Below, in pieces: positions 37,664-57,183 of a DNA stretch of 64,000 bases. Source of the stretch: Candidatus Bathyarchaeia archaeon (GTDB lineage Archaea > Thermoproteota > Bathyarchaeia > Bathyarchaeales > Bathycorpusculaceae); NCBI GenBank assembly GCA_050012755.1, contig JBEKGO010000007.1:1-64000 (forward strand). Direction: 5' to 3'. The notes below the pieces were generated by a model. That model worked only from the letters and a program-made list of their open reading frames with translations. It had not been told where the DNA came from and ran no database searches. The number at the start of each line of letters is the position of its first letter. Positions within the stretch are counted from its first letter, which is position 1. The position numbers and the translations under genes are program-made.

Positions 37664-37670
37664 GCTCGTC

Positions 37671-38771
37671 TCACTTCAAACCCATCAAAGAGGCATAATT
37701 GCGTTCAATCTCTTTAAGCAATAGGTCTTTTGTTACTGCCCCGCCAAGTTTAGCCATCGCTGCTATGGAAGCGCCGCCTGCACCAACACCTTCTTTCACA
37801 AGCCCAGTCTCGTAAATCTGCAAACCTGGAAAACGTGAACAAGTAAAATTTAAGTCAGCGGCTAAAACTGGGACGTCACAGAACTGGGAAACTATACCTT
37901 TGAGGTCAGAGGATTTATCTTTTGCAATCCATCTCGTCGTGCCAACCGCGACGTTGCAGAGTACATCAGGGTTCAAGGCGTTGACAATGGCTAAAATTGC
38001 ACTCATCTGAGTTCCACCAGCCATAAGCACAGGAACCTGCGAAGCTGCACCAACCACTAAGCCTGAGAAAGCAGCCATCATCGGGTCGCCAACACATGAA
38101 ATGGCTCTAACGGGATTTTTTGCTAAACTGCCAAAACTCTCGCCCGCAGCCGTTAAGCCTGCTCTAACAGTTTCAGCCTTCAAACTATGCGGGTTCTCGG
38201 GCAACGTGCTGCTTACTTTTCCTTCAGCTTTCACGCCTAAAGCAGATAATACGCCAAGAGCGGTTGTGGTTCCGCCTGGGATGCTTTCGCCAATCACAAG
38301 ATAATCAACAGCCTTAGCTAAGTGGAGTCCAGCAATTTTCGCTCGCTCAATAACTTCTGCAACGTTGTCAACCGAGTTGCCTGTTCGTATGTCTCTTCCT
38401 GGACTTCCGCCGAAGTCTAGAAAAGGAATTTGTGGTTTCACTTTCACTCCGCCACTAGCAATCAGCACCGGAATGTCAGCTAAATGCAGAGCCGACATAG
38501 TTATGAGGGCTGGTGTCGGGATCCCGTCAGGAGTTATAGGCACTCCGGCAATTGATTTGCAGCGTCCAAGCAGAAGCAATTCAGCGTCGGCTGGTGGAGT
38601 GTAATCGGTGAATTCTGGGTTTGCTCCAGCCGCTGATATGCCTGAGATTTTGCCGGTTTCTGTTGTGCCGATTGTGCAGATGAAAAGGGGGTTTTTGCCT
38701 TCGATTTCTTCGAGGAAAGCTTTCGCTTTCAACGGGTTATTAGCTATTAGAACGTCAAGTGATGTACTCAT
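37671..38771 (-). CDS. cobT: archaeal CobT base phosphoribosyltransferase
   Basis: GISAAG, TPPADAE, PTPALIT, GESIPGGTTTA, GDPM, AGGTQM, KEGVGAGG. Confidence 0.9.
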   Translation of the reverse strand: MSTSLDVLIANNPLKAKAFLEEIEGKNPLFICTIGTTETGKISGISAAGANPEFTDYTPPADAELLLLGRCKSIAGVPITPDGIPTPALITMSALHLADIPVLIASGGVKVKPQIPFLDFGGSPGRDIRTGNSVDNVAEVIERAKIAGLHLAKAVDYLVIGESIPGGTTTALGVLSALGVKAEGKVSSTLPENPHSLKAETVRAGLTAAGESFGSLAKNPVRAISCVGDPMMAAFSGLVVGAASQVPVLMAGGTQMSAILAIVNALNPDVLCNVAVGTTRWIAKDKSSDLKGIVSQFCDVPVLAADLNFTCSRFPGLQIYETGLVKEGVGAGGASIAAMAKLGGAVTKDLLLKEIERNYASLMGLK

Positions 38772-38772
38772 T

Positions 38773-39459
38773 CTACGGTTTTACCTTGCCTTTCAGCTTG
38801 ACCTCGAACTTCTTAATTTCCAAGTATCCGAAGCCGCCGTCTAGCTTGTGCTTTGCAGTTTCTAGAATTTCAATCTTTTTCTTGAAAGTAGGTCCATCAG
38901 TCACGACAGTGTGATATTCGCCACCTTCACCGCATGGATCAACGTTTCCTAGTTTGAGTATGTTGTCGTAGAAATTTTTGTCGAGCACTCTTCCAAGCCA
39001 TTCGATGCCTAGCTTTTCAAGGTTTGTTCGCACCACGGTGGCTTTGTAACCCGTTTTTAAGTAGTCAAGGTAAATCTGTTTTGTGTCACCCATCCAAAGG
39101 GGTTTTACAGGTTTTAGGCCAACTTCTTTGAGCACTCTGCCCAACCATCCTTTCTCATGTCCTGCAACTTCGTAAATGTCGCCTGTAACTAAGCCTTCGG
39201 CGCCTTTGAGCTTTAAGCTTCTGAGCGCACTTTTGAAATCGTTTTCGTAAGTTCCAGGGGTAGCTTGCTGTTTTACCAGTGGAATTCCAATTGCATCTGA
39301 CTGCGCATCCAAGATGGCGGAGGGTATCATGTGGAAGTTTGATTTTTCTTTACTCATCATCATAGTTAACAGGTTGATTACTTCGTAGCCTTGCTGGCTT
39401 GCCAGGTAGTATGCGTAGCAGCTGTCTTTGCCGCCACTCCATGATGCAACAACTTTCAT
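38773..39459 (-). CDS. DUF71/Dph6-like PP-loop ATP pyrophosphatase
   Basis: SWSGGKDS, TGDI, PLW, DPCGEGGEYHT.V.DGP; first gene of the cob operon. Confidence 0.88.
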   Translation of the reverse strand: MKVVASWSGGKDSCYAYYLASQQGYEVINLLTMMMSKEKSNFHMIPSAILDAQSDAIGIPLVKQQATPGTYENDFKSALRSLKLKGAEGLVTGDIYEVAGHEKGWLGRVLKEVGLKPVKPLWMGDTKQIYLDYLKTGYKATVVRTNLEKLGIEWLGRVLDKNFYDNILKLGNVDPCGEGGEYHTVVTDGPTFKKKIEILETAKHKLDGGFGYLEIKKFEVKLKGKVKP

Positions 39460-40423: not shown

Positions 40424-41581
40424 ATGGTTCAAACAAAGCTGTGCATTGTTACACACACTTTTCTGCCCCATGTCGGCGGAATAGAAAAGGTCGTGAATGA
40501 ACAAAGCAAACGGCTACTTAAAAAAAACTTTGAGCCCATAGTGGTCACGAATCGGATTGGAACACCGAAACATTACGTTGTTGACGGCGTAAGCGTTGAG
40601 TGTTATGAGTCTTTAAACACAGGTTTTCGCCTTGGAATTCCTTATTCGATTCCGACTGTGCCAAGTTTTGGAACGTTTCTTAAGGCTGTAAAATCAAGCA
40701 AAATAGTTCACGCGCATGGTCACCCGTACCTTACCTCGCTTATAGCCGCTAAGCTTGCCAAGAGATATGATAAGCCATTTGTGCTGACTCAACATAACAC
40801 TTTCATTAAGTACGAAAATTTTTTTGACAAAGTTGAACGGTTAAATGATTTAGCCGTCGGGAAAGAAACACTGAAAGAAGCAGACAAGATAATCACTGTA
40901 AGCAACGCCACTAGGGATTATGTTCTAAGTTTAGGTGCGAAACCAAAAAAAGTTGAAGTTATGTATAACGGGGTTGATTTGGAACGTTTCAGGCCTTTGA
41001 CTGGGAAAAGAGAAGAAATGAGAAAAAAACTTGAAATTCCGCAAAACTCCAAAGTGGTCATAACTGTTAGGAGACTAGTTTTCAAAAACGGCATAGACAC
41101 TCTAATGGAATGCGCAAACGTCGTTGTCAAGAAGGACCCAAATATTATTTTTCTAGTTGTTGGCAAAGGCCCAGATCAAATTACCGTGCAGATGAGAGCT
41201 CAACAATTAGGGATAGAAAATAATTTTAGGCTCACTGGATTTGTGAAAGATGAAGATTTACCATTCTACTATAACGCTGCTGACTTCTTCGTCTTGCCTT
41301 CAAAATCAGGAGAAGGCTTGCCTTTGGTCGCCCTTGAAGCTATGGCTTGTGGATTACCAGTAATAGCGACGGATGTTGGTGGCATAAATGAAGTCTTGAC
41401 GGAGAAATGGGGGAGATTGGTCCCCGCTAACCAGCCTGAGTTACTTGCAGAGGCAGTTTTGGAGTTTGCAAATGAAGATTTTTCTTCGCGCAGAAGAGAA
41501 CTGAGGGCATTTGTAGAAGAGAAGTTCAGTTGGTACAAAAACGTAGAAAGGCTCGTCGAAATATACGAAGAGCTTATTTAA
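40424..41581 (+). CDS. glycosyltransferase family 4
   Basis: PHVGGIE, YNGVD, EGLPLVALEAMACG. Confidence 0.93.
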   Translation: MVQTKLCIVTHTFLPHVGGIEKVVNEQSKRLLKKNFEPIVVTNRIGTPKHYVVDGVSVECYESLNTGFRLGIPYSIPTVPSFGTFLKAVKSSKIVHAHGHPYLTSLIAAKLAKRYDKPFVLTQHNTFIKYENFFDKVERLNDLAVGKETLKEADKIITVSNATRDYVLSLGAKPKKVEVMYNGVDLERFRPLTGKREEMRKKLEIPQNSKVVITVRRLVFKNGIDTLMECANVVVKKDPNIIFLVVGKGPDQITVQMRAQQLGIENNFRLTGFVKDEDLPFYYNAADFFVLPSKSGEGLPLVALEAMACGLPVIATDVGGINEVLTEKWGRLVPANQPELLAEAVLEFANEDFSSRRRELRAFVEEKFSWYKNVERLVEIYEELI

Positions 41582-41626: not shown

Positions 41627-42364
41627 ATGACGTCCAAGGTTGAAATGGTTTCGGTTGTCATTCCAACACTCAACGAGGCGGGAAACATTCTGCAAGCAGT
41701 AACTACTATCCACAACGATTTAGCTTATCCCAAAGAAATAATCGTGGTGGATGGCAACTCAACGGACGGCACAAAAGAAATCGTCAAAGACCTAAGTTTT
41801 TGCAAGTTAATTATTGAACCAAGACGGGGATACGGTATTGCGCTCAAAACAGGCATGCAAAAGGCGAAGGGCAACATTATTGTGATGGTTGATGGCGACG
41901 GAACATATGAGGTTAGACATATCAACCGAATGCTGGAAAAAATGGTTGAAAAAGACGCCGATATGGTTTTGGCCACCCGTATGTACGATCCCAAAAAAGC
42001 TATGGGATTTTTGAATTTTATCGGCAATAAAGTCATCACTTTCAGTTTTGATTTTTTCTATAGCCAATTTTTAAGTGACAGCCAGTCGGGTTTTAGAGCA
42101 ATCTCCCATGAAGCCTTCAACAACGTAACTTTGAAAGAGGGAGACATGGCATTTGCCACAGAGATGCTTATCCAATTTGCTAGAGAAGGATACAACATGG
42201 TTGAAATTCCGACTACTTACAAAGCCCGACATTATGGGAAAACAAAACTTAAACCATTTAAGTCAGGGATTGAAATATTCAGTACAATATTCCGGGGGAT
42301 TCTTGATCCAACGACGTTTAGAACGTGTTACGAGCATTGGAAGAAAAATCGGCTTAAACGATGA
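41627..42364 (+). CDS. glycosyltransferase family 2 (DPM1-like)
   Basis: VIPTLNE, VDGNSTDGT, DGDG, DSQSGFR. Confidence 0.92.
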   Translation: MTSKVEMVSVVIPTLNEAGNILQAVTTIHNDLAYPKEIIVVDGNSTDGTKEIVKDLSFCKLIIEPRRGYGIALKTGMQKAKGNIIVMVDGDGTYEVRHINRMLEKMVEKDADMVLATRMYDPKKAMGFLNFIGNKVITFSFDFFYSQFLSDSQSGFRAISHEAFNNVTLKEGDMAFATEMLIQFAREGYNMVEIPTTYKARHYGKTKLKPFKSGIEIFSTIFRGILDPTTFRTCYEHWKKNRLKR

Positions 42365-42830
42365 GAAAGGCTACGCAGTTGCCATTCTTATTGTTTTAAT
42401 AATTGTATCCGCACTCGTCGCAGGCTACTATTTAGTATTTAATACACCACCAGCAGGGTACAACACAATCTACATCCTTGACGCTCAAAAACAAGCGGTT
42501 AATTACCCAGTTTCGTTAGTTGCCAACCAGAACAGCACTTTTGACCTTTGGATAGGCGTTGTAAACAATATGGGAGGAAACGGAAACCAAAGTTATCAGG
42601 TCCTCGTTAAAATAACCTCGAACCCTCCAAGTTTCCCAGTTAACGTTCAGCCAACCCAAACATACGATTTAAGCTTAAGAAACACCGCAACTTGGCAAAC
42701 TGAATCAACGATAACTCTGAATCAGGTTGGAAACTATTGGGTTGTGTTTGAGCTATGGCATCAAAATTCTGCGGGCACGTACGATTTTACAAATGATGAA
42801 GCTGACTTAAACGTTCAAGTTACCAGTTAA
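42153..42830 (+). CDS. DUF1616-like membrane-anchored protein (true start probably near 42340-42350)
   Basis: TM followed by YILD.Q.QAVNYP and an Ig-like beta domain; the 5' part of the ORF overlaps the GT2 gene. Confidence 0.6.
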   Translation: MPQRCLSNLLEKDTTWLKFRLLTKPDIMGKQNLNHLSQGLKYSVQYSGGFLIQRRLERVTSIGRKIGLNDEKGYAVAILIVLIIVSALVAGYYLVFNTPPAGYNTIYILDAQKQAVNYPVSLVANQNSTFDLWIGVVNNMGGNGNQSYQVLVKITSNPPSFPVNVQPTQTYDLSLRNTATWQTESTITLNQVGNYWVVFELWHQNSAGTYDFTNDEADLNVQVTS

Positions 42831-44288
42831 TTTTTGTCTTTGGGCAAATTCTTTTTCGATGGCTACTCGATGGATGTTGTTGTAGGCGCAGAATGGTATG
42901 ATTTTGAGGTCGGGTGTAATGTAGTGGACTACGCAGCGTCTGACTCGGTTAACATCAAAATTGTATGAGTCCATGAATGCCATGCACCCCAGCAGAAAGA
43001 TTCTTCTGCGGATTTTGCCTAGCGACTGATAAGAGGGGGATAGGTGCATTCGCATAATTGAGTTCATCAGGGTAAGCATGCCGACTTCTTTGGTCACTAA
43101 GAACATGTCCATCGAAAGCATAGAAGCCATAAACAGAGAAGAGAGCAACGAGAGTTTGCCTTTAGACTCTGCGGTCTCTGCAGTTTTGCGAATGCTATTA
43201 AAGAATCTGTCAAAGTTGACGAAGCGATTGATTGGGAACATTTTGCCATCTTTTGAAACGTAAATCCAGTTTACAATGCCGCATTGTGGGCTACAGGAGA
43301 AGAGAGGCCAAGGTTTCTGCATGAATTTACGCATTATCTTTATGGGAGAAGTCATGACCGACATCGGGTACAGGTCAGTGCTTTTAATTTCGCCACGTGT
43401 TTGCCTCTCGACGTCTTCGGCAAAATGCCATTCACGGAAGTTTTCCCTAAATCTGTTTGCCGTAGCCCTGCCCGTGAAGGCGATTGGCTGGAAAATCAAG
43501 CCCCTAACAATATCAGTGTTTTTTGACGCGAACCTAATTATGTCGCCGACTTCTTCATCGTTTAAACTCTTCATAAGTGTGTTTACGAGGATTACTTCTA
43601 TGTCGTATTGACGGCAAACGTCCAGAGCTTTTAACTTGTAGTCAAAAAGCGCTTGCCCTCGAACCTTCTTGTAGAAGTCATCATGAAAACTGTCAAATTG
43701 CAAGTAAACAATGTTTAACCCGCTTTTCTTTAGCCTTTCCGCTAACTGGGGATTTTCAGCTAAACGCACGCCGTTAGTGGCAAGAATAGTCATGAACTTG
43801 AGTTTATGTGCTACAGCGATGATTTCAGGCATATCTTCCCGTTCAGTCGGTTCTCCACCTGAGAAGAGTATGGCTGGTGGTTTGGGGTTGGCTTGGCTTG
43901 CGAATTCAAGCATTCTGATAAGGTGTTCGTTGGTGGGTTCGTAATCGATTTCTTGCTCAGGAAAAGTTGAGAAGCAGATGGCGCATTTTAGGTTGCACCG
44001 TTTGGTTACATCGATGACTCCTATGACCGTGCCTGAAGCGTGGTTGTTGCATGTTTCGCAAACGTAGGGACAGCCTTTTGGGTCTTTTGGAGCGTTTAAG
44101 TCGCCGAGGTATTGGAATTGATCGTAGGTTTGCATGTGATTGTAAACATCTGTGCTCTGCCAATGAGTCGCTTCAAAGTTTCCGTGTTCGGGGCATTGCT
44201 TGGTGATTTGAATTTTTCCGTTTGCCTGTGTTAATTGAGCATCGATTTTTTTCTGGCATTCAGGGCAGATGCTCTTGGTGTCGGTCAT
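42807..44288 (-). CDS. tes: tetraether synthase (Tes/GDGT-MAS, MJ0619 family)-like radical SAM
   Basis: N-terminal CPEC...CPEH, GCPYVCETCNNH, rSAM CNLKCAIC, SGGEPT, C-terminal CSPQCG, MAFMDSYNFD..R..RCVVHY, IPFCAYN. Confidence 0.85.
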   Translation of the reverse strand: MTDTKSICPECQKKIDAQLTQANGKIQITKQCPEHGNFEATHWQSTDVYNHMQTYDQFQYLGDLNAPKDPKGCPYVCETCNNHASGTVIGVIDVTKRCNLKCAICFSTFPEQEIDYEPTNEHLIRMLEFASQANPKPPAILFSGGEPTEREDMPEIIAVAHKLKFMTILATNGVRLAENPQLAERLKKSGLNIVYLQFDSFHDDFYKKVRGQALFDYKLKALDVCRQYDIEVILVNTLMKSLNDEEVGDIIRFASKNTDIVRGLIFQPIAFTGRATANRFRENFREWHFAEDVERQTRGEIKSTDLYPMSVMTSPIKIMRKFMQKPWPLFSCSPQCGIVNWIYVSKDGKMFPINRFVNFDRFFNSIRKTAETAESKGKLSLLSSLFMASMLSMDMFLVTKEVGMLTLMNSIMRMHLSPSYQSLGKIRRRIFLLGCMAFMDSYNFDVNRVRRCVVHYITPDLKIIPFCAYNNIHRVAIEKEFAQRQKLTGNLNV

Positions 44289-45160
44289 ATTAACCCTCCA
44301 AGTGTTGCTTCGATTATTAACGCTAACGGAAGAAGAATCATCGACATCGTGACTAAACGCTCATATTTCCTAACATTCTGCACTGTTGAAGCTGAAGTTG
44401 CTAAACGAATTGAAGAGTAAATTAAAAGAACACTCCACAACAAAATGAAGGGCAAATAGGCAATTGTAAACTTGCCTATGAAGTAGGGAAGAGGAGCAAG
44501 AACTCCAGTTAAAGTGAAAAAAACTGCAGCCAGTTTCGCTGAGTTTACGCTGCCGATTTTCTGTGGAAGAGTTGGATAACCAACCTTTGAATCCCCATCG
44601 ATGCTGAGGATGTCACGCAACACATTGCCACCTATTGTGCCAAAAGCTATTGGGTATAGACTTAAAGAAATTAAGTTGATCGTGCCTGAGATGGTGGCTT
44701 GTCCGTACATGAAAGCTGTTCCAGTTAAAATTCCGACCAAGATGTTAGCGGCAAAACCTGATTTACGTTTCACAATCGTTGAGTAAATCAGAAGTAGTGT
44801 TGAATCAGCCGCGATAATTGCGAAACTTAACCAGTTAATGAATGCAGCCATAATCAAACCTACAACGAAAAGTATTCCTGAAATTGCCACTACTTGTTTT
44901 AGTGAAAGAGCACCCGACGGAATGGGGCGTTTTGGATTTATTACTGCGTCGCTTTCTCTGTCGAAAAAGTCGTTGATTGCAAAGCCTGCAGACGTTATGA
45001 AAGCCATGGAAAAGAAAATGAGCAAAATTGTTTGTATGCTGAGGCTAAGAGGGTTTTTCGTGATGGCAAAAGCCGTTAAAAGTGATAAGCCGCCAGTCAT
45101 CAGCCAGTAGGGAAGCCGCAGAAGAGCGACTAATCCTCTAGCTGGCATCGGCTTGCTCAT
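44285..45160 (-). CDS. UbiA-family prenyltransferase, DGGGP synthase-like
   Basis: NDFFDRESD..INP.RPIPSG, LRDI..IDGD...G..TLP; about 8 TM; overlaps the tes start. Confidence 0.82.
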   Translation of the reverse strand: MSKPMPARGLVALLRLPYWLMTGGLSLLTAFAITKNPLSLSIQTILLIFFSMAFITSAGFAINDFFDRESDAVINPKRPIPSGALSLKQVVAISGILFVVGLIMAAFINWLSFAIIAADSTLLLIYSTIVKRKSGFAANILVGILTGTAFMYGQATISGTINLISLSLYPIAFGTIGGNVLRDILSIDGDSKVGYPTLPQKIGSVNSAKLAAVFFTLTGVLAPLPYFIGKFTIAYLPFILLWSVLLIYSSIRLATSASTVQNVRKYERLVTMSMILLPLALIIEATLGGLI

Positions 45161-46092
45161 TTTGATATTTTCCTGTCGTCGATGACTTCTTTAATGCTAT
45201 CTTCAAGGCTTACTTTGGGATTCCAATTTAACTCTTTTTTAGCTTTAGAAATGTCAAACCAAATTGTGTTAATGTCGCCTTGCCAAGAAACACCAGTTGT
45301 TGTAACAAATGTTTTCTTTTCCAAACCCAAAATTTTAATCATCATTTTGGCAAGGTCTATTATCTTGGTTGTAGTGCCAAAGCCTAAGTTGTAGGTTTTA
45401 CCGTTTGTTGACTTATTTGACCCGACAATGACTAATGCATCGACAACATCGGAAACATGCACAAGGTCTCTTGACTGCAATCCAGTGCCGATAATTTCTA
45501 GTTTGCCCGGGTTTTTAGCGAGTTTATCAAGAAAGTCATGGATAACTCCATGGCATCTTAACCCGTATACGTTGGCGAACCTCGTAATAGTAATGTCTAA
45601 ACCATATTGGTCCACGTACATGCCGCAATATTCTTCACCAACTACCTTGGATAAGCCGTAGCATGAAACAGGGTGAAAGCCGTATTCTTCTTTTGTCGGC
45701 AATTCTGTAGGATTGCCATAAACTGCCGCGCTAGATGCGAAAACAAGTTTTGCATCATCCTTCCTTGCTTTTTCTAATACGGCGAGGGTACCTTTGGCGT
45801 TTGTTTCGAAATCTATCATGGGATTCTCCATGGAGTAGGGAACCACAACCTGGGCTGCTAAGTGATAAATCAAGTCAGCCTTCTCTTGAGAGCATAGTTT
45901 TTTGACGTCAAGAATGTCGCCTTTTACAAGTTTTGCTTTAGGTACGTCTTTTACGTTTTCCATTTTGCCGCTTGACAAGTTATCGTAAATAGTTAAGTTA
46001 GAAGCTAGTTTTGACAGTCTAGTACAAAGGTGAAAGCCAATAAAACCCGCGCCGCCAGTAACAAGTATTTTTTTCCCCTCAAGTTCTCCCAT
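45157..46092 (-). CDS. NAD-dependent nucleotide-sugar epimerase/dehydratase
   Basis: TGGAGFIG, HLAA, SSAAVYG, YGLSK, RFANVYG. Confidence 0.93.
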   Translation of the reverse strand: MGELEGKKILVTGGAGFIGFHLCTRLSKLASNLTIYDNLSSGKMENVKDVPKAKLVKGDILDVKKLCSQEKADLIYHLAAQVVVPYSMENPMIDFETNAKGTLAVLEKARKDDAKLVFASSAAVYGNPTELPTKEEYGFHPVSCYGLSKVVGEEYCGMYVDQYGLDITITRFANVYGLRCHGVIHDFLDKLAKNPGKLEIIGTGLQSRDLVHVSDVVDALVIVGSNKSTNGKTYNLGFGTTTKIIDLAKMMIKILGLEKKTFVTTTGVSWQGDINTIWFDISKAKKELNWNPKVSLEDSIKEVIDDRKISK

Positions 46093-46139
46093 TTAAATCA
46101 CGATAAAGCCTATATTTCTTTAAGTCAGTTGTAGGGTAT

Positions 46140-46985
46140 ATGTCGCCAGTGAAACCTATAAAAACTTTTAGGGATTTGCTGTCTTTCCTAACCATTATTC
46201 CAGTTGGCGGAAAAGAAGACTTTGTTTTCACAACAGCCGAAAATGTGTATCTTTTTCCATTAATCGGCGGCTTTATTGGGCTGTTAGCGGCGGCTTACTT
46301 TGTCGGTTCAGGCTTTATTGTAAGGTTTTTGTTTGGTTTGGTGAATTCGGTTATTGTGTTGCCGACCGATTTCTTATCTAGGCTCGCGGTTGCTGCTATG
46401 ACCGTGGCTTTCCTTCTTGTTATAACAGGGCTTCAACACTTTGATGGCTTAATCGATTTAGGCAACGCAGTTGGACTGGGGAACATGCATGACCGAAAAA
46501 TGGTTGCTCACGCTTGGACCGTAACTTACGCAGGAGCTTTGCTTGCGATAATCGTAGAGTTCGCCGCGTTTGTCGGTTTATTTTTTGTTTTTAGCCCATT
46601 GCTTGCTTTTGCCGCAATAATTGCTGCTGAAGTTTCAGCTAAATTGGCTATGGTTACAATTGTTTGGGTTGGAAAGCCCACGCACAAGGGGTTAGGCTCA
46701 ATTTTTCTGTCAAAGGCAAAAAAGAAATTAAACGTTATCGCTTATGGGCTTTCGGCTTTGATTGTTTATCCATTTTTCGCTTATGCACTTAACCCGCTTC
46801 TGGGTTTAGTCGGCGTCGCTGTAGTGCTGGTTAGCATTCCAGTAGCCCTTGTAATGGAGAAAGTTTCAGAAAGAGTCTTTGGAGGAGTGTCAGGCGATAC
46901 TATCGGAGCAACCAACGAGGTCGCCAGGGCAGTCACACTTATTTTGCTTGCAGCCATGTTTGCAGTGCTGGCGATTTTGAAATGA
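46140..46985 (+). CDS. divergent CobS-like protein (second copy)
   Basis: FLTIIP, TGLQHFDGLIDLGNA, GGVSGDTIGATNE. Confidence 0.8.
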   Translation: MSPVKPIKTFRDLLSFLTIIPVGGKEDFVFTTAENVYLFPLIGGFIGLLAAAYFVGSGFIVRFLFGLVNSVIVLPTDFLSRLAVAAMTVAFLLVITGLQHFDGLIDLGNAVGLGNMHDRKMVAHAWTVTYAGALLAIIVEFAAFVGLFFVFSPLLAFAAIIAAEVSAKLAMVTIVWVGKPTHKGLGSIFLSKAKKKLNVIAYGLSALIVYPFFAYALNPLLGLVGVAVVLVSIPVALVMEKVSERVFGGVSGDTIGATNEVARAVTLILLAAMFAVLAILK

Positions 46986-47605
46986 AAGTTCCCGCGTTAA
47001 TTATGGCTGGCGGCAAAGGCATTCGAATGGGTTTGCCAACTGAGAAGCCGCTTTTGCCCCTCTTAGGCAAACCGCTTGTCGATTGGGTTGCAGATGCAGT
47101 TGCCAATGCCCAAAAGGTTTCAGAGTTTTATGTGGTTACCAGCTCGAATACTCCTGAAACGGAGAAATATTGCCAAAACAAGGGATGGAAAGTGTTACGC
47201 ACGGACGCCAAAGGCTACCACAATGACCTCAAACAGGCTGCGAAGTTGGCTGGTTTGATGGGCCCAATTCTAACAATACCAGCTGATTCTCCAGCTGTCA
47301 CAGGCGAATTCCTTGACAAAATTGTTAGCCAGTTTGAAGCTTGCGGTAAAGACTTCTATGCAGTTTTTGTGCCAATTTCAGCTCGCGAAGCTTTGGGATT
47401 ATCAATCGACTCAACCGACGAATACAAGGGCGAATGGTATGCAGTTTCAGGAGTCAACATTGTCAATGGCGATAAAAGTCAGGGAGAGGGCAAAATCGAA
47501 ACAAGCGCTCTAATTACAGAGGAAATTGAAGTTCTTCTAAATATTAATACACTGAAAGATTTAGAAATCGCAGAAAAAATAATGCAAATCAGAAAGTTAA
47601 GTTAA
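46982..47605 (+). CDS. CobY-like nucleotidyltransferase (second copy)
   Basis: MAGGKGIRM..EKP, ADSP, GVNI, NINT. Confidence 0.82.
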   Translation: MKVPALIMAGGKGIRMGLPTEKPLLPLLGKPLVDWVADAVANAQKVSEFYVVTSSNTPETEKYCQNKGWKVLRTDAKGYHNDLKQAAKLAGLMGPILTIPADSPAVTGEFLDKIVSQFEACGKDFYAVFVPISAREALGLSIDSTDEYKGEWYAVSGVNIVNGDKSQGEGKIETSALITEEIEVLLNINTLKDLEIAEKIMQIRKLS

Positions 47606-47692: not shown

Positions 47693-49135
47693 ATGAGCCT
47701 ACTAAGTCACGATAGCTTCTGGAATGCAGTGATAACTCTGCCCATGACCAAAAAAATGCTGCAACTATCTCTAAAAAAATGCCCTGCGTGTGGCAGAACA
47801 GTTCTTGAAGCGGCATTGGACGCTTATGCTGGGAAAACCGATCGTGACTGTGAAAAATGCAGCGTTTTTTACTCGCAGATTATTGGTTTCTGGGTTGAAT
47901 TTCTAAGACGAAGCTTAAATTTTAAGCGAGAAAAGGTTGAGAAGCTTTTAGCTGACCCGTATGCAAGGCGGGCGGTAATAAACTTAACCAAGAGTTTTGC
48001 TTACGTTGGAATCAAAAAGCCAATCTCACTTTATGCTCCCTTCTTGATTGTTTGGGATTTTACGCATAATTGCAATTTGAAATGCAAGCACTGCTACTCA
48101 AATAGCGGCGCAATCAGGGAAGAAGAATTGACCACGCAGCAGGCTAAAGATGTGGTAGATCAGATTGCAGATGCCGGAGTGACGGCTCTTGCTTTTTCAG
48201 GTGGTGAACCCTTAACCCGCAGTGACTTTTTTGAGGTTGCACGATATGCGGCCGACCGTGGGCTCTATATATCCGTCGCCACAAACGGCACTCTGCTAAC
48301 CAAAGAAAATGTGCAGAAACTCAAAGCCGCCAAAGTCAACTATTTGGACATCAGCATTGATGGTGCCTGCGCCAAAACACACGACGAATTCCGAGGCGTT
48401 CCAGGAGCGTTTGACAAAGCGGTCGCTGGTTTGAAGAACTGTATTGAAGCAGATTTATGCGTGTGCATAGCTACAACGGCAACAAAAAGTAATCTTGAAG
48501 AAATGCCAGCAATAATTGATTTAGCCGAAGAATTAGGGGCAGAGAGATTTACTAACTTTAATTTTGTTCCAGCAGGCAGAGGCAAAGCACATTATGAACA
48601 GGACCTGTCCCCTGAAGAACGGGAAAAACTTATGCGGTACCTGCTGGCAAGGATGTCTAAGGGCTGCAAAACGACCATTCTTACAACTGCTCCTCAGCTA
48701 GCCCGCGTTGGTATACAGTGTCAAGGAACAGAAGGCACAGGCGAAATAACTATGTCCATGGCCCACATGCAAACCGTCAAAGTAACCAAAAAAGCGGTTC
48801 CATTGGCAGATTTTATCGGCGGATGCGGTGCCGGACGTCTATATTGCTCACTCTCACCCCAAGGAGATGTTCACCCATGTGTCTTTCTACCAGTAAATGT
48901 GGGCAACCTCAAAACCGAAAAGTTCCAAGACATCTGGATAAACGCGCCACTCTTTAACGCGTTTAGAAATAGAGCAAACCTAAAGGGAGCCTGCGGTAAA
49001 TGCACTTACAAATATATTTGCGGTGGGTGCAGAGCACGGTCAGCAGCCTACCATAACGGTGACATGTTAAATTCTGACCCCGGCTGCATAATGGGAGTGA
49101 AAGGTGCCAAAAGTGCTTATCCCACAAACAGTTAA
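47693..49135 (+). CDS. radical SAM/SPASM protein with N-terminal Cys domain; possible GMGT synthase (Gms)-like
   Basis: CPAC..CEKC, APFLIVWDFTHNCNLKCKHCY, SGGEP, SPASM CGAG...PC...C..C.Y...CGGCRA...DP.C; the Gms assignment is inferred. Confidence 0.7.
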   Translation: MSLLSHDSFWNAVITLPMTKKMLQLSLKKCPACGRTVLEAALDAYAGKTDRDCEKCSVFYSQIIGFWVEFLRRSLNFKREKVEKLLADPYARRAVINLTKSFAYVGIKKPISLYAPFLIVWDFTHNCNLKCKHCYSNSGAIREEELTTQQAKDVVDQIADAGVTALAFSGGEPLTRSDFFEVARYAADRGLYISVATNGTLLTKENVQKLKAAKVNYLDISIDGACAKTHDEFRGVPGAFDKAVAGLKNCIEADLCVCIATTATKSNLEEMPAIIDLAEELGAERFTNFNFVPAGRGKAHYEQDLSPEEREKLMRYLLARMSKGCKTTILTTAPQLARVGIQCQGTEGTGEITMSMAHMQTVKVTKKAVPLADFIGGCGAGRLYCSLSPQGDVHPCVFLPVNVGNLKTEKFQDIWINAPLFNAFRNRANLKGACGKCTYKYICGGCRARSAAYHNGDMLNSDPGCIMGVKGAKSAYPTNS

Positions 49136-50069
49136 AATCTTCCGTGCAGAAGCTGATATAAGCGAAATTGTAAAGGAAGCCGTCGCTAATTCGGGGTTAC
49201 GTGGCAAACACAAAATTTTCGTTAAGCCTAACCTAAGTCACCCAGAGTACTTGCCGGGTGTTGTTACAAGCCCTGAATTAATGCAGCAACTCGTCGGCTT
49301 GCTACGCGATGGAAACAGCGAAGTCATTGTGGGCGAATCAAACGGCTTCAACTATCCCTGTTGGACAGCGTTTGATAAAACAGGCGCCGAAGCCGCAGTG
49401 AAAGCGGCAGGTGGCAGTGTAATCAACCTCTCCGAAGAAAAAGTGGTTGAAGTAAAATTCCAGGGTAACACTCCACTGAAACGGCTGTTTCTGCCCAAAA
49501 CTATCCTTGATGCCGACGCTGTTGTGGATTTGCCCTTGATGAAAACACATGAGTTCATGGCATTCAGTGGCGCAATCAAAAATCTATTTGGCTGCGTTCC
49601 CAGCAACAAACGAATCTATTTACATCCATATTTGCCTGAGGTGTTTTATCGACTATACACCCTTTTCAAACCTCAATTAACGATTATGGATGCGAGGACA
49701 GGCATTGAAGGCAATGGACCAACTAAAGGCAAACCAGTTAAAATGGGGTTAATGCTAACAGGCAACGATGCATTAGCAGTAGATATAACCGCCGCCAAAG
49801 TCATGATGCTCGATTGGAAAGAAACCTATCTGAATTACATCACCAATAAAACGGGTTTACGCGAAGACGATATCAATGTTGAAGGCTTGCCGATTGGCAA
49901 AGTTGAGCACAGGTTTGAGCTGCCTCGGATTGATTTGCCCTTGAAAGCACAAATGATGATTTACCAACATGAATACCTAACGAAATTTTTCTTCTGCTCA
50001 TTGGATATTGTTAAGTTGTTCCAGAAGGTAACTGTGGCCTATCGAGGCGAACCCGTAGAAATCGGTTAA
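49104..50069 (+). CDS. DUF362 family protein
   Basis: VKPNL, LPLMKTH, GAIKNLFG, GNGP; overlaps the upstream radical SAM. Confidence 0.88.
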   Translation: MPKVLIPQTVKIFRAEADISEIVKEAVANSGLRGKHKIFVKPNLSHPEYLPGVVTSPELMQQLVGLLRDGNSEVIVGESNGFNYPCWTAFDKTGAEAAVKAAGGSVINLSEEKVVEVKFQGNTPLKRLFLPKTILDADAVVDLPLMKTHEFMAFSGAIKNLFGCVPSNKRIYLHPYLPEVFYRLYTLFKPQLTIMDARTGIEGNGPTKGKPVKMGLMLTGNDALAVDITAAKVMMLDWKETYLNYITNKTGLREDDINVEGLPIGKVEHRFELPRIDLPLKAQMMIYQHEYLTKFFFCSLDIVKLFQKVTVAYRGEPVEIG

Positions 50070-51259
50070 CTTAGAGCTTCATCATAGACTCTCATGGCGT
50101 CTTTAACGACAATTCGCCAGTCAAGTTGTTGTTCAACCGTTTTGCGTGCTTTTGCACCCATCTCCTCTGCCTCTACTTGATGCTCAAGCAAATACAAGAT
50201 TTTTTCAGAGAATTGCATTGGATTGAAGGGGCCCACTAGAAATCCGTTTTTGCCGCTGTCAATGGTTTCAGGGATTCCGCCCACAGTGGTTGTCACGACA
50301 GGTAAGCCTGTAGCCATTGCTTCGAGCACGGCGAAGGGATGATGCTCATAGAAGGTCGAGAAAGCAAAGACGTCTGCGGCTTGATAGAGTTTTGGCAGTT
50401 TCTTGTCTGGGTAGTAGCCTGTGAAGACGATGTTGTCTTTGACGCCGAGTTTCTCAGCATGAGAGATTAGTTTGTGCATTTCGTTGCTCTGTCCTTTGCC
50501 TGAAATGATGAATTTGGCGTTGGGGAAACGTTTTGTGACGGCTGGCATGCTTTCGATTAGGGTAAACAAGCCTTTGCGGGCATAGAGACGCCCTACAGAG
50601 ACGATGGCTAAATCGTCAGGGTCAAAGCCCAATTCTGCTTTGACTTTGCGTTTGTCGGCGGTTGGCTTAAACTTGTTGATGTCAACGCCGTTGTGGATGA
50701 CCCGTATCTTGCTTGCGGAAATCTTGTAGTAATTTGTCAACTCCCATTTGGTAAAGTGGCTGACAGCGATGATTTTTCGTGCTCGCCTGAGCATGCCTTC
50801 CTCAAAAAACCTTAAGAACGGGTTAAAACTCACCAAAAATTTTTCGTTTGCGTTGAGGCGGCTGTAGGGTTCACCGCGGATAGCTTCGGCCTCTCCTTTC
50901 CATGTGGAGTGGACAGTGCAGACGAGGGCTTTTCCAAAGTGGGGTGGCACAGCAAAGTTGGGTGTCAGGGGCAGTTGGGGATGGGTAATATCCACATTTG
51001 CTGTGTTGCGGATGCTCTGGAGTTTGCGGTTGCTGGCAGCCGCAAGCATGAACGATTTCACAATGGGCGTCTTGGGGATTTTCAGGAAGGAAACATCTAG
51101 GTTAGGGTTGACTTGGATATCTTGGGCTTGGTTTGAGCCTGTGACGACGTAGACTTTGTAGCCGTTTTTGAGGAGTTCGTTTGAAAGGTAATAGACATAT
51201 GAGCCTGTTCCTCCTGATAATGGCCAATATTCAGGCGAGACGAAGCATACTTTAGGCAT
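50066..51259 (-). CDS. glycosyltransferase family 4
   Basis: P..GGTG, HNGVD, GRL..RKG, EHHPFAVLEAMA. Confidence 0.92.
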   Translation of the reverse strand: MPKVCFVSPEYWPLSGGTGSYVYYLSNELLKNGYKVYVVTGSNQAQDIQVNPNLDVSFLKIPKTPIVKSFMLAAASNRKLQSIRNTANVDITHPQLPLTPNFAVPPHFGKALVCTVHSTWKGEAEAIRGEPYSRLNANEKFLVSFNPFLRFFEEGMLRRARKIIAVSHFTKWELTNYYKISASKIRVIHNGVDINKFKPTADKRKVKAELGFDPDDLAIVSVGRLYARKGLFTLIESMPAVTKRFPNAKFIISGKGQSNEMHKLISHAEKLGVKDNIVFTGYYPDKKLPKLYQAADVFAFSTFYEHHPFAVLEAMATGLPVVTTTVGGIPETIDSGKNGFLVGPFNPMQFSEKILYLLEHQVEAEEMGAKARKTVEQQLDWRIVVKDAMRVYDEALS

Positions 51260-54707: not shown

Positions 54708-55556
54708 TTATTTTTTTGCTATCCAGAAACTCATTTCGGGGCTACCGATTAACCGATAAATCAGAGACATAGGATTCCAAATCCAAGTGCTTGTTTGATA
54801 GTAATCCGTTCTCTTCGAAAATTTGTAGCCTTCTTGTTTGAAAACCTCTTCTATGTTTTTGTGGTTTAATGCATGCTCCTTCTTGTGCCAATAATCAGAC
54901 AAAGAATAATCAATAAGAGGAACCTTTAACCCGATAATTTGGAAATACAGGCTGTTTAGTAATGGGTTTGAATGAAAATAGATGCCTTTGATGAGGCTTG
55001 CTAAGCCGCTTTGTTCACTTTTCCAATAAGATGGGGATGCTTCGTGGTCAACGTAGACTACGCCGCCCTTCTTGAGAAAAACGCTGAGGCTTCTAAGCGC
55101 AGATACATAATCGGGTAGATGATGCAGTGCGGAGTAGCAAGTTATTAAATCAAATTTTCCAATGTCGAAATCGAGGTTTTCGATTGGAGAATTAATTATT
55201 GTCAACTTATTTGATTTTAAGTAGGCACTGTATTTTTTTTGCAGAATCGCACACATTTCCGGCGAAATGTCAACAGCCGTAACCTGATAGCCCATCTGCA
55301 ATAGCTTGCCTGTTAAATTGCCTGTGCCTGCTCCGACATCAAGAGCAAACTTTTTGTTGTCGGTCACAAGTTTATCTGCCATTTTCAGTTTGTCACTTAT
55401 TCTCTTCTGCTCTTTTTTGCTATAAACTTCCGGATGGAGCATTTCGTAGTATTTCGCTTCAGAGCGATGTACCGAAACGTTTGCTTGGTGAATTTGTTCT
55501 TTGAGACTTGGGTTGTTTAGCAATCCGGTTTCCATCCAGACAGACTGAGTTGTCAC
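54708..55556 (-). CDS. class I SAM-dependent methyltransferase
   Basis: LDVGAGTG, VDIS, FDLI...ALHH, LKKGG; start may be ATG 55535. Confidence 0.88.
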   Translation of the reverse strand: MTTQSVWMETGLLNNPSLKEQIHQANVSVHRSEAKYYEMLHPEVYSKKEQKRISDKLKMADKLVTDNKKFALDVGAGTGNLTGKLLQMGYQVTAVDISPEMCAILQKKYSAYLKSNKLTIINSPIENLDFDIGKFDLITCYSALHHLPDYVSALRSLSVFLKKGGVVYVDHEASPSYWKSEQSGLASLIKGIYFHSNPLLNSLYFQIIGLKVPLIDYSLSDYWHKKEHALNHKNIEEVFKQEGYKFSKRTDYYQTSTWIWNPMSLIYRLIGSPEMSFWIAKK

Positions 55557-55592: not shown

Positions 55593-56951
55593 TCAGGACA
55601 AAATCAGGGGAGCTTTCTTAATAACGGTCCAGAACCCTTCTCGCTTAATCTTGTGCAGAATCCGCTTTGGCGACTTGTTGAAGTTCATGTGGAATTGCCG
55701 CTGAATCTTCAGCAATGAAGCGTAGTCGAAGTCAGCAGTTTTTACATATGCCGCGTAATCTTCAATTTGGTCGTAGAGGTGTTTTTGCATGACTTCATCA
55801 TAGAGGGGACTGCCTGGAACTGCAATGTAGATGTTCCAACGAATGAAGTCAGGGTCAAGTTTTCTAGCGAACTTGAATGAAGTTTTCATGTCCTCGACTG
55901 TTTCGCCTGGGATGCCTAGCAGAAAAGAACAAGCAGTTTGAATGCCCTCATCTCTGCACAGCTCAAACGCACATTCAGTCTGCTCGACGGTGACGCCCTT
56001 GTTAATTTTCTCAAGAATTCGGGGAGAACCGGATTCGACGCCGAACCATATTGTTTTGCAGCCTGCAGATTTCATTTCTTGCAGGAGCTCTTTTGAGAGG
56101 AGGTCGGCTCGGGTGTCGCATACCCATTGGAGGTCAAGCTTATTTTCACGGATTAATCTACATAGTTCAATGGTTTCTTTCTTTTTGATGGTAAAGTTAT
56201 CGTTTATGAAGTAGACGCCTTTTGTGTCGAAGTTTGTCATTAAATATTTGATTTCGTCCACAACCCTTTGAGGGCTGAAGGTGCGGCATGTTCGTCCCAT
56301 TAATCCGGTGGTTTCACAGAAAGCACAATTAAACGGGCAGCCTCTTGCGATACTCATGTTGTCTATGGGTTTAACGTTTAGGTATTCCATTTCCCTGACA
56401 TAACGGTCCATCGGCAACAGATGCCAAGCGGGGAAAGGAATCTCATCCATATTAGTAATGAATTGCCGTTGGTTTTTGATTATTTTGTCGTCATTTCTGT
56501 AGACGAGTCCAGCAATCTTGGAGGGGTCGTTGGCTTTGTCGCCTTTAACGATATAGTTGGCAAGCTGCACCATGGCGCATTCGCCCTCGCCCATAACAAC
56601 GTAGTCAACTTCGGGGTTCTGCAACAAGGTTTCAGGTTCATATGAGGCATGCCAGCCGCCAACCACAACTTTGCAGGCGGGAACGGTTTCTTTAACTGCC
56701 TTGGCGGTTTCGATGACACGACTGTAAGTTACTGAGCTACAGGTTATACCGACTATTTCAGGTTTGAGTTTCGCTAGTTCAGTCTTTATTTCTTCAATTG
56801 GTTTCTCCAGCATGTAGTTATCTATCATCTGGACCTGAAAACCGCCTTTTTCAAGGGCTGCTGCAACGTAAGCTAAGCCTATTGGAATGAATCTTCTGCC
56901 ATGAATCCAAGGTCCCTTTGTTGGGGGTGCTGGCGTCATTAACAAAATCAA
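55593..56951 (-). CDS. B12-binding radical SAM enzyme #1
   Basis: PIGLAYVAA, GGWH, GEGE, RGCPFNCAFC, DDNF-like NDNF, GVESG; start TTG 56951 or ATG 56939. Confidence 0.9.
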   Translation of the reverse strand: MILLMTPAPPTKGPWIHGRRFIPIGLAYVAAALEKGGFQVQMIDNYMLEKPIEEIKTELAKLKPEIVGITCSSVTYSRVIETAKAVKETVPACKVVVGGWHASYEPETLLQNPEVDYVVMGEGECAMVQLANYIVKGDKANDPSKIAGLVYRNDDKIIKNQRQFITNMDEIPFPAWHLLPMDRYVREMEYLNVKPIDNMSIARGCPFNCAFCETTGLMGRTCRTFSPQRVVDEIKYLMTNFDTKGVYFINDNFTIKKKETIELCRLIRENKLDLQWVCDTRADLLSKELLQEMKSAGCKTIWFGVESGSPRILEKINKGVTVEQTECAFELCRDEGIQTACSFLLGIPGETVEDMKTSFKFARKLDPDFIRWNIYIAVPGSPLYDEVMQKHLYDQIEDYAAYVKTADFDYASLLKIQRQFHMNFNKSPKRILHKIKREGFWTVIKKAPLILS

Positions 56952-57183
56952 TCGATATGCATCCTGTTTATTGCGAGTAGAAATATTTACTATGGAAGTT
57001 TGTAGATAAAGATTTCTTAAAAAAGCGCAATCTTGGTTTTTTCGCAGTTTGAGGTTGAGTGAAGTGGAAGTTGCGGGTGTTTCATCAAGCAAACTCAATT
57101 TTGCAGTTTTTAGCTAAATCTACGAAATGTTTAAGCATCCGTCATCTTGTAATTTCAGGAAATAGGGCACTTAGTGAAACGGA

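Follow-up and report, generated by a model that had tools for sequence, protein, structure and literature searches.

A lineage-restricted operon of epimerase, DGGGPS-clan and Tes-clan genes in Bathyarchaeia: a candidate second branch of ether-lipid synthesis

INTRODUCTION

Why would an archaeon whose genome holds canonical genes for tetraether lipids carry a second prenyltransferase and a second radical S-adenosylmethionine (SAM) enzyme of the same clans, packed behind the gene for a sugar epimerase? This question is raised by a three-gene operon in positions 1 to 64,000 of contig JBEKGO010000007.1 (this whole stretch of 64,000 nucleotides is called the window below), from a soil archaeon, Candidatus Bathyarchaeia (assembly GCA_050012755.1; genome G000, 2.41 Mb in 65 contigs, reported 100% complete). 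The operon encodes a short-chain dehydrogenase/reductase (SDR) of the GalE type, a paralogue of digeranylgeranylglyceryl phosphate synthase (DGGGPS), here named UbiA2, and a paralogue of Tes, also called GDGT-MAS after its glycerol dialkyl glycerol tetraether (GDGT) products, here named Tes2. The arrangement of its genes, their paralogy, families, and retained motifs, the narrow distribution, and the conserved order and neighbourhood were observed directly and are described below. In our assessment the chances are about even that this lineage-restricted accessory operon represents a specialised second ether-lipid branch.

Tetraether lipids are major biomarkers and serve as climate proxies. In sediments and soils, Bathyarchaeia rank with the most abundant archaea. 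Second Tes copies are already in print for methanogens: the consulted portion of Zeng et al. (2022) gives two copies in 22 of 322 methanogen genomes and describes MA_1114 of Methanosarcina acetivorans, which resembles Tes2 in being an extra member of the Tes family beside a functional Tes in the same genome. MA_1114 is compared here by its description only, and that portion of the paper mentions no operon with UbiA and SDR genes. A full-text search of the published literature returned no Tes-UbiA-epimerase operon and no description of Tes paralogues in Bathyarchaeia, the primary papers on butanetriol dialkyl glycerol tetraethers (BDGTs) lying outside that search. Public annotation names proteins of the window type Tes, radical SAM protein, or DGGGPS, and because these labels are simply "Tes" and "DGGGPS", surveys that count Tes genes would read the paralogue as ordinary GDGT capacity. 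The two lineages to which the cassette is confined are associated with the use of lignin and methoxy-aromatic compounds. A dedicated second pair of DGGGPS and Tes would offer a system in which to learn what sets the substrate specificity of each enzyme, and the operon may point to genes for lipids that mark particular lineages, among them BDGTs, for which the consulted literature names no biosynthetic enzyme.

RESULTS

Operon structure and gene order

All three genes lie on the minus strand. The SDR gene (45157..46092; 311 amino acids [aa]) comes first and is followed by UbiA2 (44285..45160; 291 aa) and Tes2 (42807..44288; 493 aa), which encode a candidate NAD-dependent sugar-nucleotide 4-epimerase of the extended GalE type, a DGGGPS-clan prenyltransferase paralogue, and a Tes/GDGT-MAS-clan radical SAM paralogue, respectively. 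The original prediction, made from the sequence alone, had described three minus-strand genes with overlaps of 4 nucleotides (nt), and this description is exact: the coordinates of the open reading frames (ORFs) agree, and both junctions read ATGA in the sequence, the stop TGA overlapping the start ATG by 4 nt. A GGAGG-like motif stands 5 nt 5′ of the Tes2 start. The 4-nt overlaps were found again at most orthologous loci, so they are conserved and not due to chance; in Bathy-8 the overlap between UbiA and Tes is kept and the SDR gene stands about 11 nt apart. Upstream of the operon, the divergent start codons of the SDR gene and of its neighbour CobS2 are separated by an AT-rich spacer of 47 bp (46093..46139), presumed to be a shared promoter region.

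The gene order is equally stable. Among 151 Bathyarchaeia genomes (G000 included), the sample on which all genome-level counts in this study are based, the order SDR-UbiA-Tes was found at 14/14 paralogue-type Tes loci, and neither a UbiA nor an SDR gene was found within 1.5 kb of canonical Tes at any of 16 loci. A scan of species-level genomes with a Tes2-specific peptide pattern gave 540 relatives, and the best 80 of these (65-97% identity) are the loci behind all counts out of 80. UbiA2 is present at 79/80 and the SDR gene at 78/80, the exceptions being L047 and L052, where the Tes match lies close to a contig end. The Tes2 gene of one cassette genome (G136; locus L025, contig C6, 329-1696) is read as two abutting pieces (identities of 69% and 56%), as would result from a frameshift or from an error in the assembly. 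Among longer proteins no UbiA-Tes fusion was found, which is weak evidence, and a search of the ESM Atlas returned the expected families only.

Paralogy of the lipid genes within the genome

The original prediction had proposed a second branch and would have been contradicted if these genes were the sole, orthologous housekeeping copies; a count of paralogues in G000 shows that they are second, divergent copies. The genome holds two Tes-family genes over the family cut-off and three UbiA genes, and the window copies are 38% (Tes) and 29% (UbiA) identical to their canonical counterparts. Canonical Tes, on contig C42, scores about 661 bits, and Tes2 scores 475.2 bits on NF045702, the NCBIfam Tes equivalog, narrowly over the cut-off of 450. 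The canonical DGGGPS-like UbiA, on contig C31, reaches 236 bits on the DGGGPS-type model NF009523, compared with 166.6 bits for UbiA2. One match each was obtained for GGGPS (PF01884) and CarS (PF01864); with these single-copy, duplication is limited to the steps of DGGGPS and Tes.

Two further observations concern genes of these families. The only match to CarS (CDP-archaeol synthase) in G000 lies at the start of the same window, at 375-857 on the plus strand. The third UbiA gene of the genome (L013, contig C13, 1372-2175, minus strand) is very divergent, has no NCBIfam match at 1e-10, and adjoins a gene for a large polytopic membrane protein to which no family is assigned.

Sequence features of Tes2

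Tes2 contains a radical SAM domain and the HMPTM/Tes N-terminal zinc ribbon (PF23545, 58 bits). It aligns over its full length with GDGT-MAS of Methanocaldococcus jannaschii (MJ0619; PDB 7TOL) at 386 bits and has the same four metal sites as this enzyme and Tes of M. acetivorans (MA_1486). The comparison used the ligands named for GDGT-MAS in the part of Lloyd et al. (2022) that was consulted, together with a canonical set of 17 Bathyarchaeia sequences (Tes1) and a paralogue set of 13 Tes2 sequences that does not include the split gene of L025. The rubredoxin-like N-terminal site CX2C-X20-CX2H is present (C8, C11, C32, and H35), as are the N-terminal auxiliary [4Fe-4S] site (C73, C77, C80, and H83; C77 in 12/13 Tes2) and the radical SAM motif CX3CX2C (C98, C102, and C105, in RCNLKCAIC), which is found in 13/13 Tes2 and 17/17 Tes1. 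The assignment of H83 as the liganding His of the auxiliary site is an inference from the topology legend of Lloyd et al. (2022). At the C-terminal auxiliary cluster, M436 aligns with the labile ligand Met439 of M. jannaschii, and the conserved cysteines C336, C452, and C467 are invariant in both sets. The kept ligands suggest that Tes2 is catalytically competent.

The earlier reading of the motifs stood in most respects. It had stated that the N-terminal metal site and all Cys clusters are kept and that CETC and CSPQCG are variants, all of which proved real, but the string it gave as canonical, CHPHCG, was mistaken and should be H-x-H-C-G. Tes2 reads CPYVCETC where M. jannaschii GDGT-MAS has CPYDCGLC and the canonical Tes of the same genome has CPNDCGIC, and it reads SCSPQCG where the counterparts are HQHCG (M. 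jannaschii) and AHPHCG (own genome).

Two of the altered positions are histidines. His437, beside the labile Met, is found in 40 of 45 Tes-proper representatives and is replaced by Ala in 13/13 Tes2. His333, found in 36 of the same 45, is Ser in the window protein and Ser or Thr across the Tes2 group. Both positions adjoin residues of the C-terminal cluster, and by these alignments Tes2 is altered around that cluster while all four GDGT-MAS metal sites are intact. Within the Tes-proper side, Ala at 437 occurs in the paralogue type only. Family-wide, among 137 representatives of at least 400 aa (of 150 listed), position 437 is His in 63 and Ala in 41, the Ala mostly in a distant subgroup of about 450 aa. 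The idea that the His losses are unique to Tes2 was tempered for this reason: they are diagnostic inside Tes proper, and Ala is also widespread in the superfamily. The consulted parts of the papers on GDGT-MAS/Tes contain no discussion of His437 or His333. An insertion of nine residues in the Tes2 lipid pocket was also considered and was rejected, as none is present relative to M. jannaschii GDGT-MAS and the length of this segment varies family-wide; judged from the alignment, the apparent insertion is a deletion in the housekeeping Tes of Bathyarchaeia.

Sequence features of UbiA2 and the epimerase

UbiA2 matches PF01040 at 114.6 bits. Its best NCBIfam models are of the DGGGPS type, at 166.6 bits (cut-off 269) and 163.8 bits (cut-off 296), with a third at 108.4 bits (cut-off 353), and its scores on other prenyltransferase models are 90 bits for ChlG, 66 for UbiA-like, 64 for heme o synthase, 47 for MqnP, and 44 for UbiA. 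Its best relative in the PDB is the DGGGPS of M. jannaschii (6M31), at 109 bits versus 53 bits for chlorophyll synthase. By these model and structure scores UbiA2 appears to group with DGGGPS and not with the quinone, heme, or chlorophyll prenyltransferases. A quinone or heme prenyltransferase, which the original prediction had named as the finding that would speak against it, is not what we see, with 164-167 bits on the DGGGPS-type models against 64 bits for heme o synthase. The label "DGGGPS-like" held at the clan level, where the DGGGPS models score best, and went too far at the family level: because UbiA2 falls under every DGGGPS cut-off, we file it as a DGGGPS-clan paralogue and not as DGGGPS.

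The DGGGPS motif residues used here come from a review, part of which was consulted. Motif 1, N-x3-D-x3-D, is kept (NDFFDRESD aligns with N62/D66/D70 of M. jannaschii), and so is motif 2 (Y126 and K131, equivalent to Y125 and K130 of M. jannaschii). Motif 3 is a variant, RDILSIDGD; in a reading by alignment column, the equivalents of D180 and D187 are kept and Ser stands at the D183 position, the spacing being D-x5-D-x-D in UbiA2 and D-x2-D-x3-D in M. jannaschii. The other DGGGPS-like gene of the genome, by the same kind of column reading, has no D180 equivalent in motif 3. The retention of motifs 1 and 2 suggests that UbiA2 is catalytically competent.

The SDR protein matches PF01370 at 184.5 bits and TIGR01179 (galE) at 167.4 bits, under the cut-off of 262.3. 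Its closest solved structures are archaeal and thermophile UDP-glucose/galactose 4-epimerases (3ICP, 3EHE, and 4ZRM; 165-185 bits), and like these small archaeal GalE proteins it is an extended SDR of about 310 aa. Its translation shows GGAGFIG and YGLSK, which correspond to GxxGxxG and YxxxK, the defining motifs of extended SDRs. We classify it as a GalE-type extended SDR and a candidate sugar-nucleotide 4-epimerase. It differs from GalE in its score under the galE cut-off and in being uniquely coupled to lipid-core genes.

Distribution and phylogeny of the cassette

A Tes-family match (E ≤ 1e-30) was found in 132/151 Bathyarchaeia genomes, and the identities of these matches to Tes2 fall in two groups. 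Tes2 itself is present in 14 genomes: ten at 65-100% identity, G136 with its split gene at 69% and 56%, and three genomes of family f5, genus g18, at 46-47%. All remaining Tes matches lie at 42% or below, bar one interrupted Tes-like gene at 41-47% in G008. UbiA2 (at least 44% identity) occurs in the same 14 genomes, and all other UbiA matches are at 36% or below. The carriers of the cassette are Bathy-6 and the Bathy-8 genus Bathyarchaeum. UbiA2 proteins of f5/g18 are letter-identical to NCBI proteins named Candidatus Bathyarchaeum tardum or Bathyarchaeum sp., and Bathyarchaeum is described, in the literature consulted in part, as a genus-level lineage of Bathy-8 with metagenome-assembled genomes from lignin enrichments among its members. 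Almost all of the best 80 relatives are labelled Bathyarchaeota or Bathyarchaeia, and they include Bathy6-F90_cMAG and the termite-gut Candidatus Bathycorpusculum; named members of the Tes2 cluster include Candidatus Termitimicrobium, a Bathy-6 genus according to the consulted part of PMC11697101. Canonical Tes is also present in 12/14 cassette genomes, and a canonical DGGGPS-like gene is present in 13/14. G118 and G094 have the Tes paralogue only, and G124 has UbiA2 only (no canonical copy found); the completeness of these three genomes is 92-95%.

Searched exhaustively, 1.84 billion protein representatives clustered at 50% identity yielded one other full-length cluster over the canonical level, P0273 (47%, 495 bits). 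The next full-length match lies at the canonical level (36%, 332 bits), and a few short fragments of higher identity are apparently pieces of the query's own cluster. No Tes2-like cluster was found outside Bathyarchaeia among these representatives. The phylogenetic tree of Tes comprises 85 rows (9 of the 13 paralogues, 17 canonical Bathyarchaeia sequences, and 59 representatives of 430-620 aa from P0273-P0344). It places the paralogues in a clade with strong support (SH-aLRT 100) and a stem of 0.64. This clade lies apart from another one of 20 rows (support 98), to which all 17 canonical sequences of Bathyarchaeia belong. Because it falls outside the housekeeping-Tes clade of Bathyarchaeia, Tes2 is not a recent duplication within the lineage. 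The rows nearest to the Tes2 clade are weakly supported, and one of them is labelled Hodarchaeales. In comparison with Tes/GDGT-MAS, Tes2 is thus a second copy in a separate long-stemmed clade, with the replacements His437Ala and His333Ser/Thr, and always stands in the UbiA/SDR operon.

Some single loci deserve separate mention. The Tes2-like gene of G008 (L130, contig C55, 7666-9089) matches in two adjacent pieces of 45% and 37% identity and appears to be interrupted at about 8292-8298. Considered as a remnant of the cassette it was uninformative, as it stands alone with no UbiA2 or SDR gene nearby; it may represent a pseudogene or else a third type of paralogue. Two loci with foreign labels, L084 ("Methanocella sp.", 79%) and L117 ("Candidatus Nanoarchaeia archaeon", 66%), carry a Bathyarchaeia-type cassette in full synteny and are probably mis-binned contigs or wrong labels, not instances of transfer.

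Conserved neighbourhood of the operon

The operon sits in a neighbourhood of about 20 genes that is common to both lineages. The original prediction overlooked this wider setting, as well as the duplication of the flanking CobS and CobY genes. The Bathy-8 genome G086 has GT4-DUF1616-SDR-UbiA-Tes on one strand, and its 34-kb stretch holds counterparts of nearly every window gene between 40.4 and 63.0 kb: four B12-radical SAM genes, a methyltransferase, an AhbD-like gene, GT4b, GT2b, GT2c, a 192-aa protein, a CobD-like gene, CobY, CobS2, the operon, DUF1616, and GT4a.

Three plus-strand genes lie downstream of Tes2 in the window. GT4a (40424..41581; PF00534; 70/80 loci) is a glycosyltransferase whose 48% identical Bathy-8 counterpart stands two genes upstream of the SDR gene. 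A GT2 gene (41627..42364; 67/80 loci) resembles AglJ/dolichyl-phosphate-hexose synthases (TIGR04182, 165.8 bits, under the cut-off of 325). A short DUF1616-type membrane protein (42366..42830; PF07760, 37.9 bits; start codon uncertain; 63/80 Bathy-6 loci) is convergent with Tes2, and the 3′ ends of the two ORFs overlap by 24 nt (42807-42830); in Bathy-8 its counterpart lies directly upstream of the SDR gene on the same strand. The DUF1616-GT2-GT4 block stands downstream of the operon at 63-70/80 Bathy-6 loci, and several loci have the block elsewhere with the operon intact. Another glycosyltransferase, GT4b (50066..51259, minus strand; PF00534), has a 42% identical counterpart in the Bathy-8 region. 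The presence of GT4a, DUF1616, GT2, and GT4b beside the cassette in Bathy-8 despite rearrangement suggests a glycosylation context and would support the reading of the operon as a second ether-lipid branch.

On the other side of the operon, a radical SAM/SPASM gene of the AhbD type (47693..49135, plus strand) encodes a protein with a Cys-containing N-terminal extension of about 117 aa; residues 118-466 match TIGR04545 at 314.8 bits, under the cut-off of 500. The gene is present at 47/80 loci, has a 52% identical counterpart in Bathy-8, and is followed in the window by a DUF362 gene (49104-50069). Gms, the synthase of glycerol monoalkyl glycerol tetraethers (GMGTs), is an AhbD homologue with an additional N-terminal domain and is reportedly common in Bathyarchaeota, and the AhbD-like gene is a candidate Gms. 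Further along, a gene for a 192-aa protein and a gene for a CobD-like aminotransferase (together 53023-54703, plus strand; CobD-like, 275 bits, under 290.6) form a pair that adjoins CobY/CobS2 in Bathy-8.

A class I SAM methyltransferase gene (54708..55556, minus strand; PF08241; 53% counterpart in Bathy-8) adjoins B12-rSAM1 (55593..57098, minus strand; PF02310 and PF04055), which reaches no curated family. Three further B12-binding radical SAM genes follow on the plus strand (57184-58569, 59104-60507, and 61539-63005), giving four such genes in 7.4 kb. None of the four exceeds a curated cut-off, and all have 55-64% counterparts near the cassette in Bathy-8; they could belong to the Grs/Gmm/Ted class of enzymes, which modify lipids. 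B12-rSAM1 has matches of at least 52% identity in each of the 14 cassette genomes and in none of the other 137, all remaining matches lying at 40% or below, yet it is found (at least 50%) within 10 kb of the cassette at just 3/80 Bathy-6 loci. B12-rSAM4 is present at 50% or more in 13 cassette genomes and in the cassette-less G148, and at 46% in G124. The methyltransferase was found in nine of the 151 genomes, all nine with the cassette.

The remaining neighbours point to cobamide synthesis. CobS2 (46140..46985, plus strand), a divergent second CobS-family gene, scores 113.6 bits on TIGR00317, narrowly over the cut-off of 110, and CobY2 (46982..47605, plus strand) is a CobY-like nucleotidyltransferase gene whose product is 36% identical to CobY1. 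The canonical copies belong to a CobT-CobS1-CobY1 operon at 36276-38771, with CobY1 at 36276-36893 and CobS1 at 36884-37663, both on the minus strand; CobS1 scores 150 bits on TIGR00317 and is 35% identical to CobS2. Both CobS proteins share H-x-DGL-x-D and GD-x2-GATNE, which we take to be the conserved motifs of the CobS family. CobS and CobY genes stand divergently upstream of the operon at 76/80 and 72/80 loci, respectively. Each of the 14 cassette genomes has two matches to the CobS family, a stronger one of 130-152 bits and a weaker one of 51-98 bits, the latter being near the cassette in 13/14; in G145 the weaker match is to a fragment where a contig ends. Of the 26 CobS-positive genomes without the cassette, 25 have a single match and G040 has two, and five cassette-less relatives gave no CobS match with the CobS query used. 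The two CobY types swap positions between genomes, and Bathy-8 has a single CobY match, which stands beside CobS2 in G086 and G094. Because the CobY type beside CobS2 varies between genomes, CobY2 is probably an ordinary cobamide gene, and CobS2 probably also has a cobamide-related role. A role of CobY2 and CobS2 as an activation and transfer pair for lipid head groups, which had been considered, is now unlikely in view of the swapped CobY types, the single CobY in Bathy-8, and the CobD-like gene conserved nearby. The cobamide genes of the neighbourhood (CobS2, CobY, CobD-like, CobT, CobZ, and CbiQ) have an ordinary reason to be there, since the adjacent B12-radical SAM enzymes need cobamide.

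Possible functions of the operon

In the scheme that we favour, every substrate, every product, and the link to glycosylation are predicted from sequence. The operon would duplicate two consecutive steps of core-lipid synthesis and add a sugar-nucleotide epimerase. With GGGPS and CarS single-copy, the branch most likely diverges from the normal pathway once geranylgeranylglyceryl phosphate (GGGP) has been made. UbiA2 would prenylate GGGP, or a modified form of it, a second time, perhaps with another prenyl donor, to give a variant diether, whose tails Tes2 would then join or alter by radical C-C chemistry. The outcome would be a membrane-spanning or macrocyclic lipid unlike bulk GDGT. The epimerase would supply an epimerised UDP-hexose, which the neighbouring GT4 and GT2 enzymes would attach as a head group. 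The original prediction of a particular glyco-tetraether, possibly on a non-standard backbone, is partly supported: the second copies, their coupling, and the conserved glycosyltransferase neighbours agree with it, and the tetraether, its sugar, and its backbone are putative.

Several points weigh against this scheme. A Tes paralogue need not make tetraethers, because MA_1114 of M. acetivorans gave no GDGT and only a trace of macrocyclic archaeol, as reported in the consulted portion of Zeng et al. (2022). The three genomes with a paralogue and no canonical counterpart may be incomplete, or the paralogue may serve there alone. The epimerase, whose UDP-hexose substrate is putative, scores under the galE cut-off. 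The carriers belong to two lineages of one order only, and the co-occurrence counts amount to about two independent events; conserved neighbours could be explained as inherited gene order. In a cassette-less genome of the same genus, G148 (90% complete), the match to the window ends at about 36.2 kb, the contig runs on for more than 11 kb, and nothing from 36.2 to about 57 kb of the window was found in this genome, so its co-absences count as one event, a block of about 20 kb or larger missing whole. Finally, with so many cobamide genes nearby, a "lipid island" is not the sole reading of the region.

It is possible, though unlikely, that Tes2 and UbiA2 are isozymes making the same products from archaeol to GDGT under other conditions, such as stress or another growth phase, with the epimerase as a passenger of the glycosylation cluster. 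Tes2 does exceed the Tes equivalog cut-off (475.2 versus 450 bits) with all metal ligands kept, UbiA2 keeps DGGGPS motifs, and the two cassette genomes without canonical Tes and the one without canonical DGGGPS would fit interchangeable enzymes; these three genomes, however, are only 92-95% complete. Identities of 38% and 29% to the canonical copies are low for such a role, UbiA2 lies far under every DGGGPS cut-off, and His437, kept in 40/45 Tes-proper sequences, is Ala in 13/13 Tes2. A passenger also does not fit an SDR gene that is translationally coupled and is present at 14/14 paralogue loci, including those of 45% identity. We are more doubtful of a proposal in which the operon is the core of a cluster of about 20 genes for backbone-methylated (butanetriol or pentanetriol) or "unconventional" tetraethers, B12-rSAM1 and its methyltransferase neighbour being the backbone methylase and UbiA2 and Tes2 accepting the methylated backbone. 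That a B12-radical SAM enzyme methylates the glycerol backbone on the way to BDGTs or their pentanetriol analogues (PDGTs), with UbiA2 and Tes2 adapted to the methylated intermediate, seems quite unlikely to us. The consulted parts of the literature attribute BDGTs to Baizosediminiarchaeum of Bathy-8 or to Bathyarchaeia, one review treating them as a lineage-specific biomarker, and relate from Coffinet 2022 that in Methanomassiliicoccus luminyensis the additional methyl group derives from methionine through a radical reaction, a probable SAM enzyme being left nameless (PMC12694404, PMC13003381, and PMC11767167). The cassette is indeed present in Bathyarchaeum of Bathy-8, as the letter-identical UbiA2 proteins indicate, B12-rSAM1 follows it in 14/14 genomes and 0/137 others, and the methyltransferase is confined to cassette carriers. 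The cassette is far commoner in Bathy-6, however (80 of the best 80 loci), a group for which we met no report of BDGTs in the literature consulted in part. According to the part of the review consulted, methylation acts on finished GDGTs, and a second DGGGPS would then be needless. Moreover, with no Tes2-like cluster outside Bathyarchaeia among the protein representatives searched, the cultured BDGT producer M. luminyensis cannot have a close Tes2. If the methylated-tetraether proposal were true, it would provide a genetic basis for BDGT biomarkers and predict Bathy-6 of soil and peat as BDGT makers.

The product might not be a bulk lipid at all: a minor ether lipid that anchors or carries a glycan at the cell surface, in a molecule of the lipoglycan type whose glycan the GT4, GT2, and DUF1616 genes build, would agree with the conservation of GT4a, the AglJ-like GT2, DUF1616, GT4b, GT2b, and GT2c around the cassette in both lineages and with the co-orientation of GT4-DUF1616-SDR-UbiA-Tes in Bathy-8. 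The cultured Bathy-8 organism has an additional outer sheath, the composition of which is given as unknown in the part of the published description consulted. We nevertheless consider such an anchor improbable, since clusters of glycosyltransferases are common and may be mere neighbours, the DUF1616-GT2-GT4a block lies elsewhere in several Bathy-6 loci, and the glycosyltransferases are without any link to lipid acceptors. Least of all do we expect the operon to work with CobS2/CobY and the B12 genes, for instance in making or anchoring a special corrinoid. This very improbable role would explain why CobS2 is found in 14/14 cassette genomes, near the cassette in 13, and why CobD-like, CobT, CobZ, and CbiQ genes are nearby. 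Against it, no cobamide step is known to require an enzyme like DGGGPS or Tes. The CobY types trade places between genomes, as would be expected of ordinary cobamide genes in the vicinity, and the need of B12-radical SAM enzymes for cobamide accounts for the proximity. The pocket of GDGT-MAS is a narrow hydrophobic lipid tunnel, according to the consulted part of Lloyd et al. (2022), and Tes2 aligns to GDGT-MAS over its full length.

Other features of the window

Base composition at the operon is unremarkable, with a GC content of 0.417-0.424 compared with 0.39-0.47 over the window. Two Diphthami_syn_2 paralogues (putative Dph6-like ATP pyrophosphatases, with no score over the archaeal Dph6 cut-off) lie amid the cobamide and B12-radical SAM genes, one at 38773-39459 on the minus strand and the other at 60613-61446 on the plus strand.

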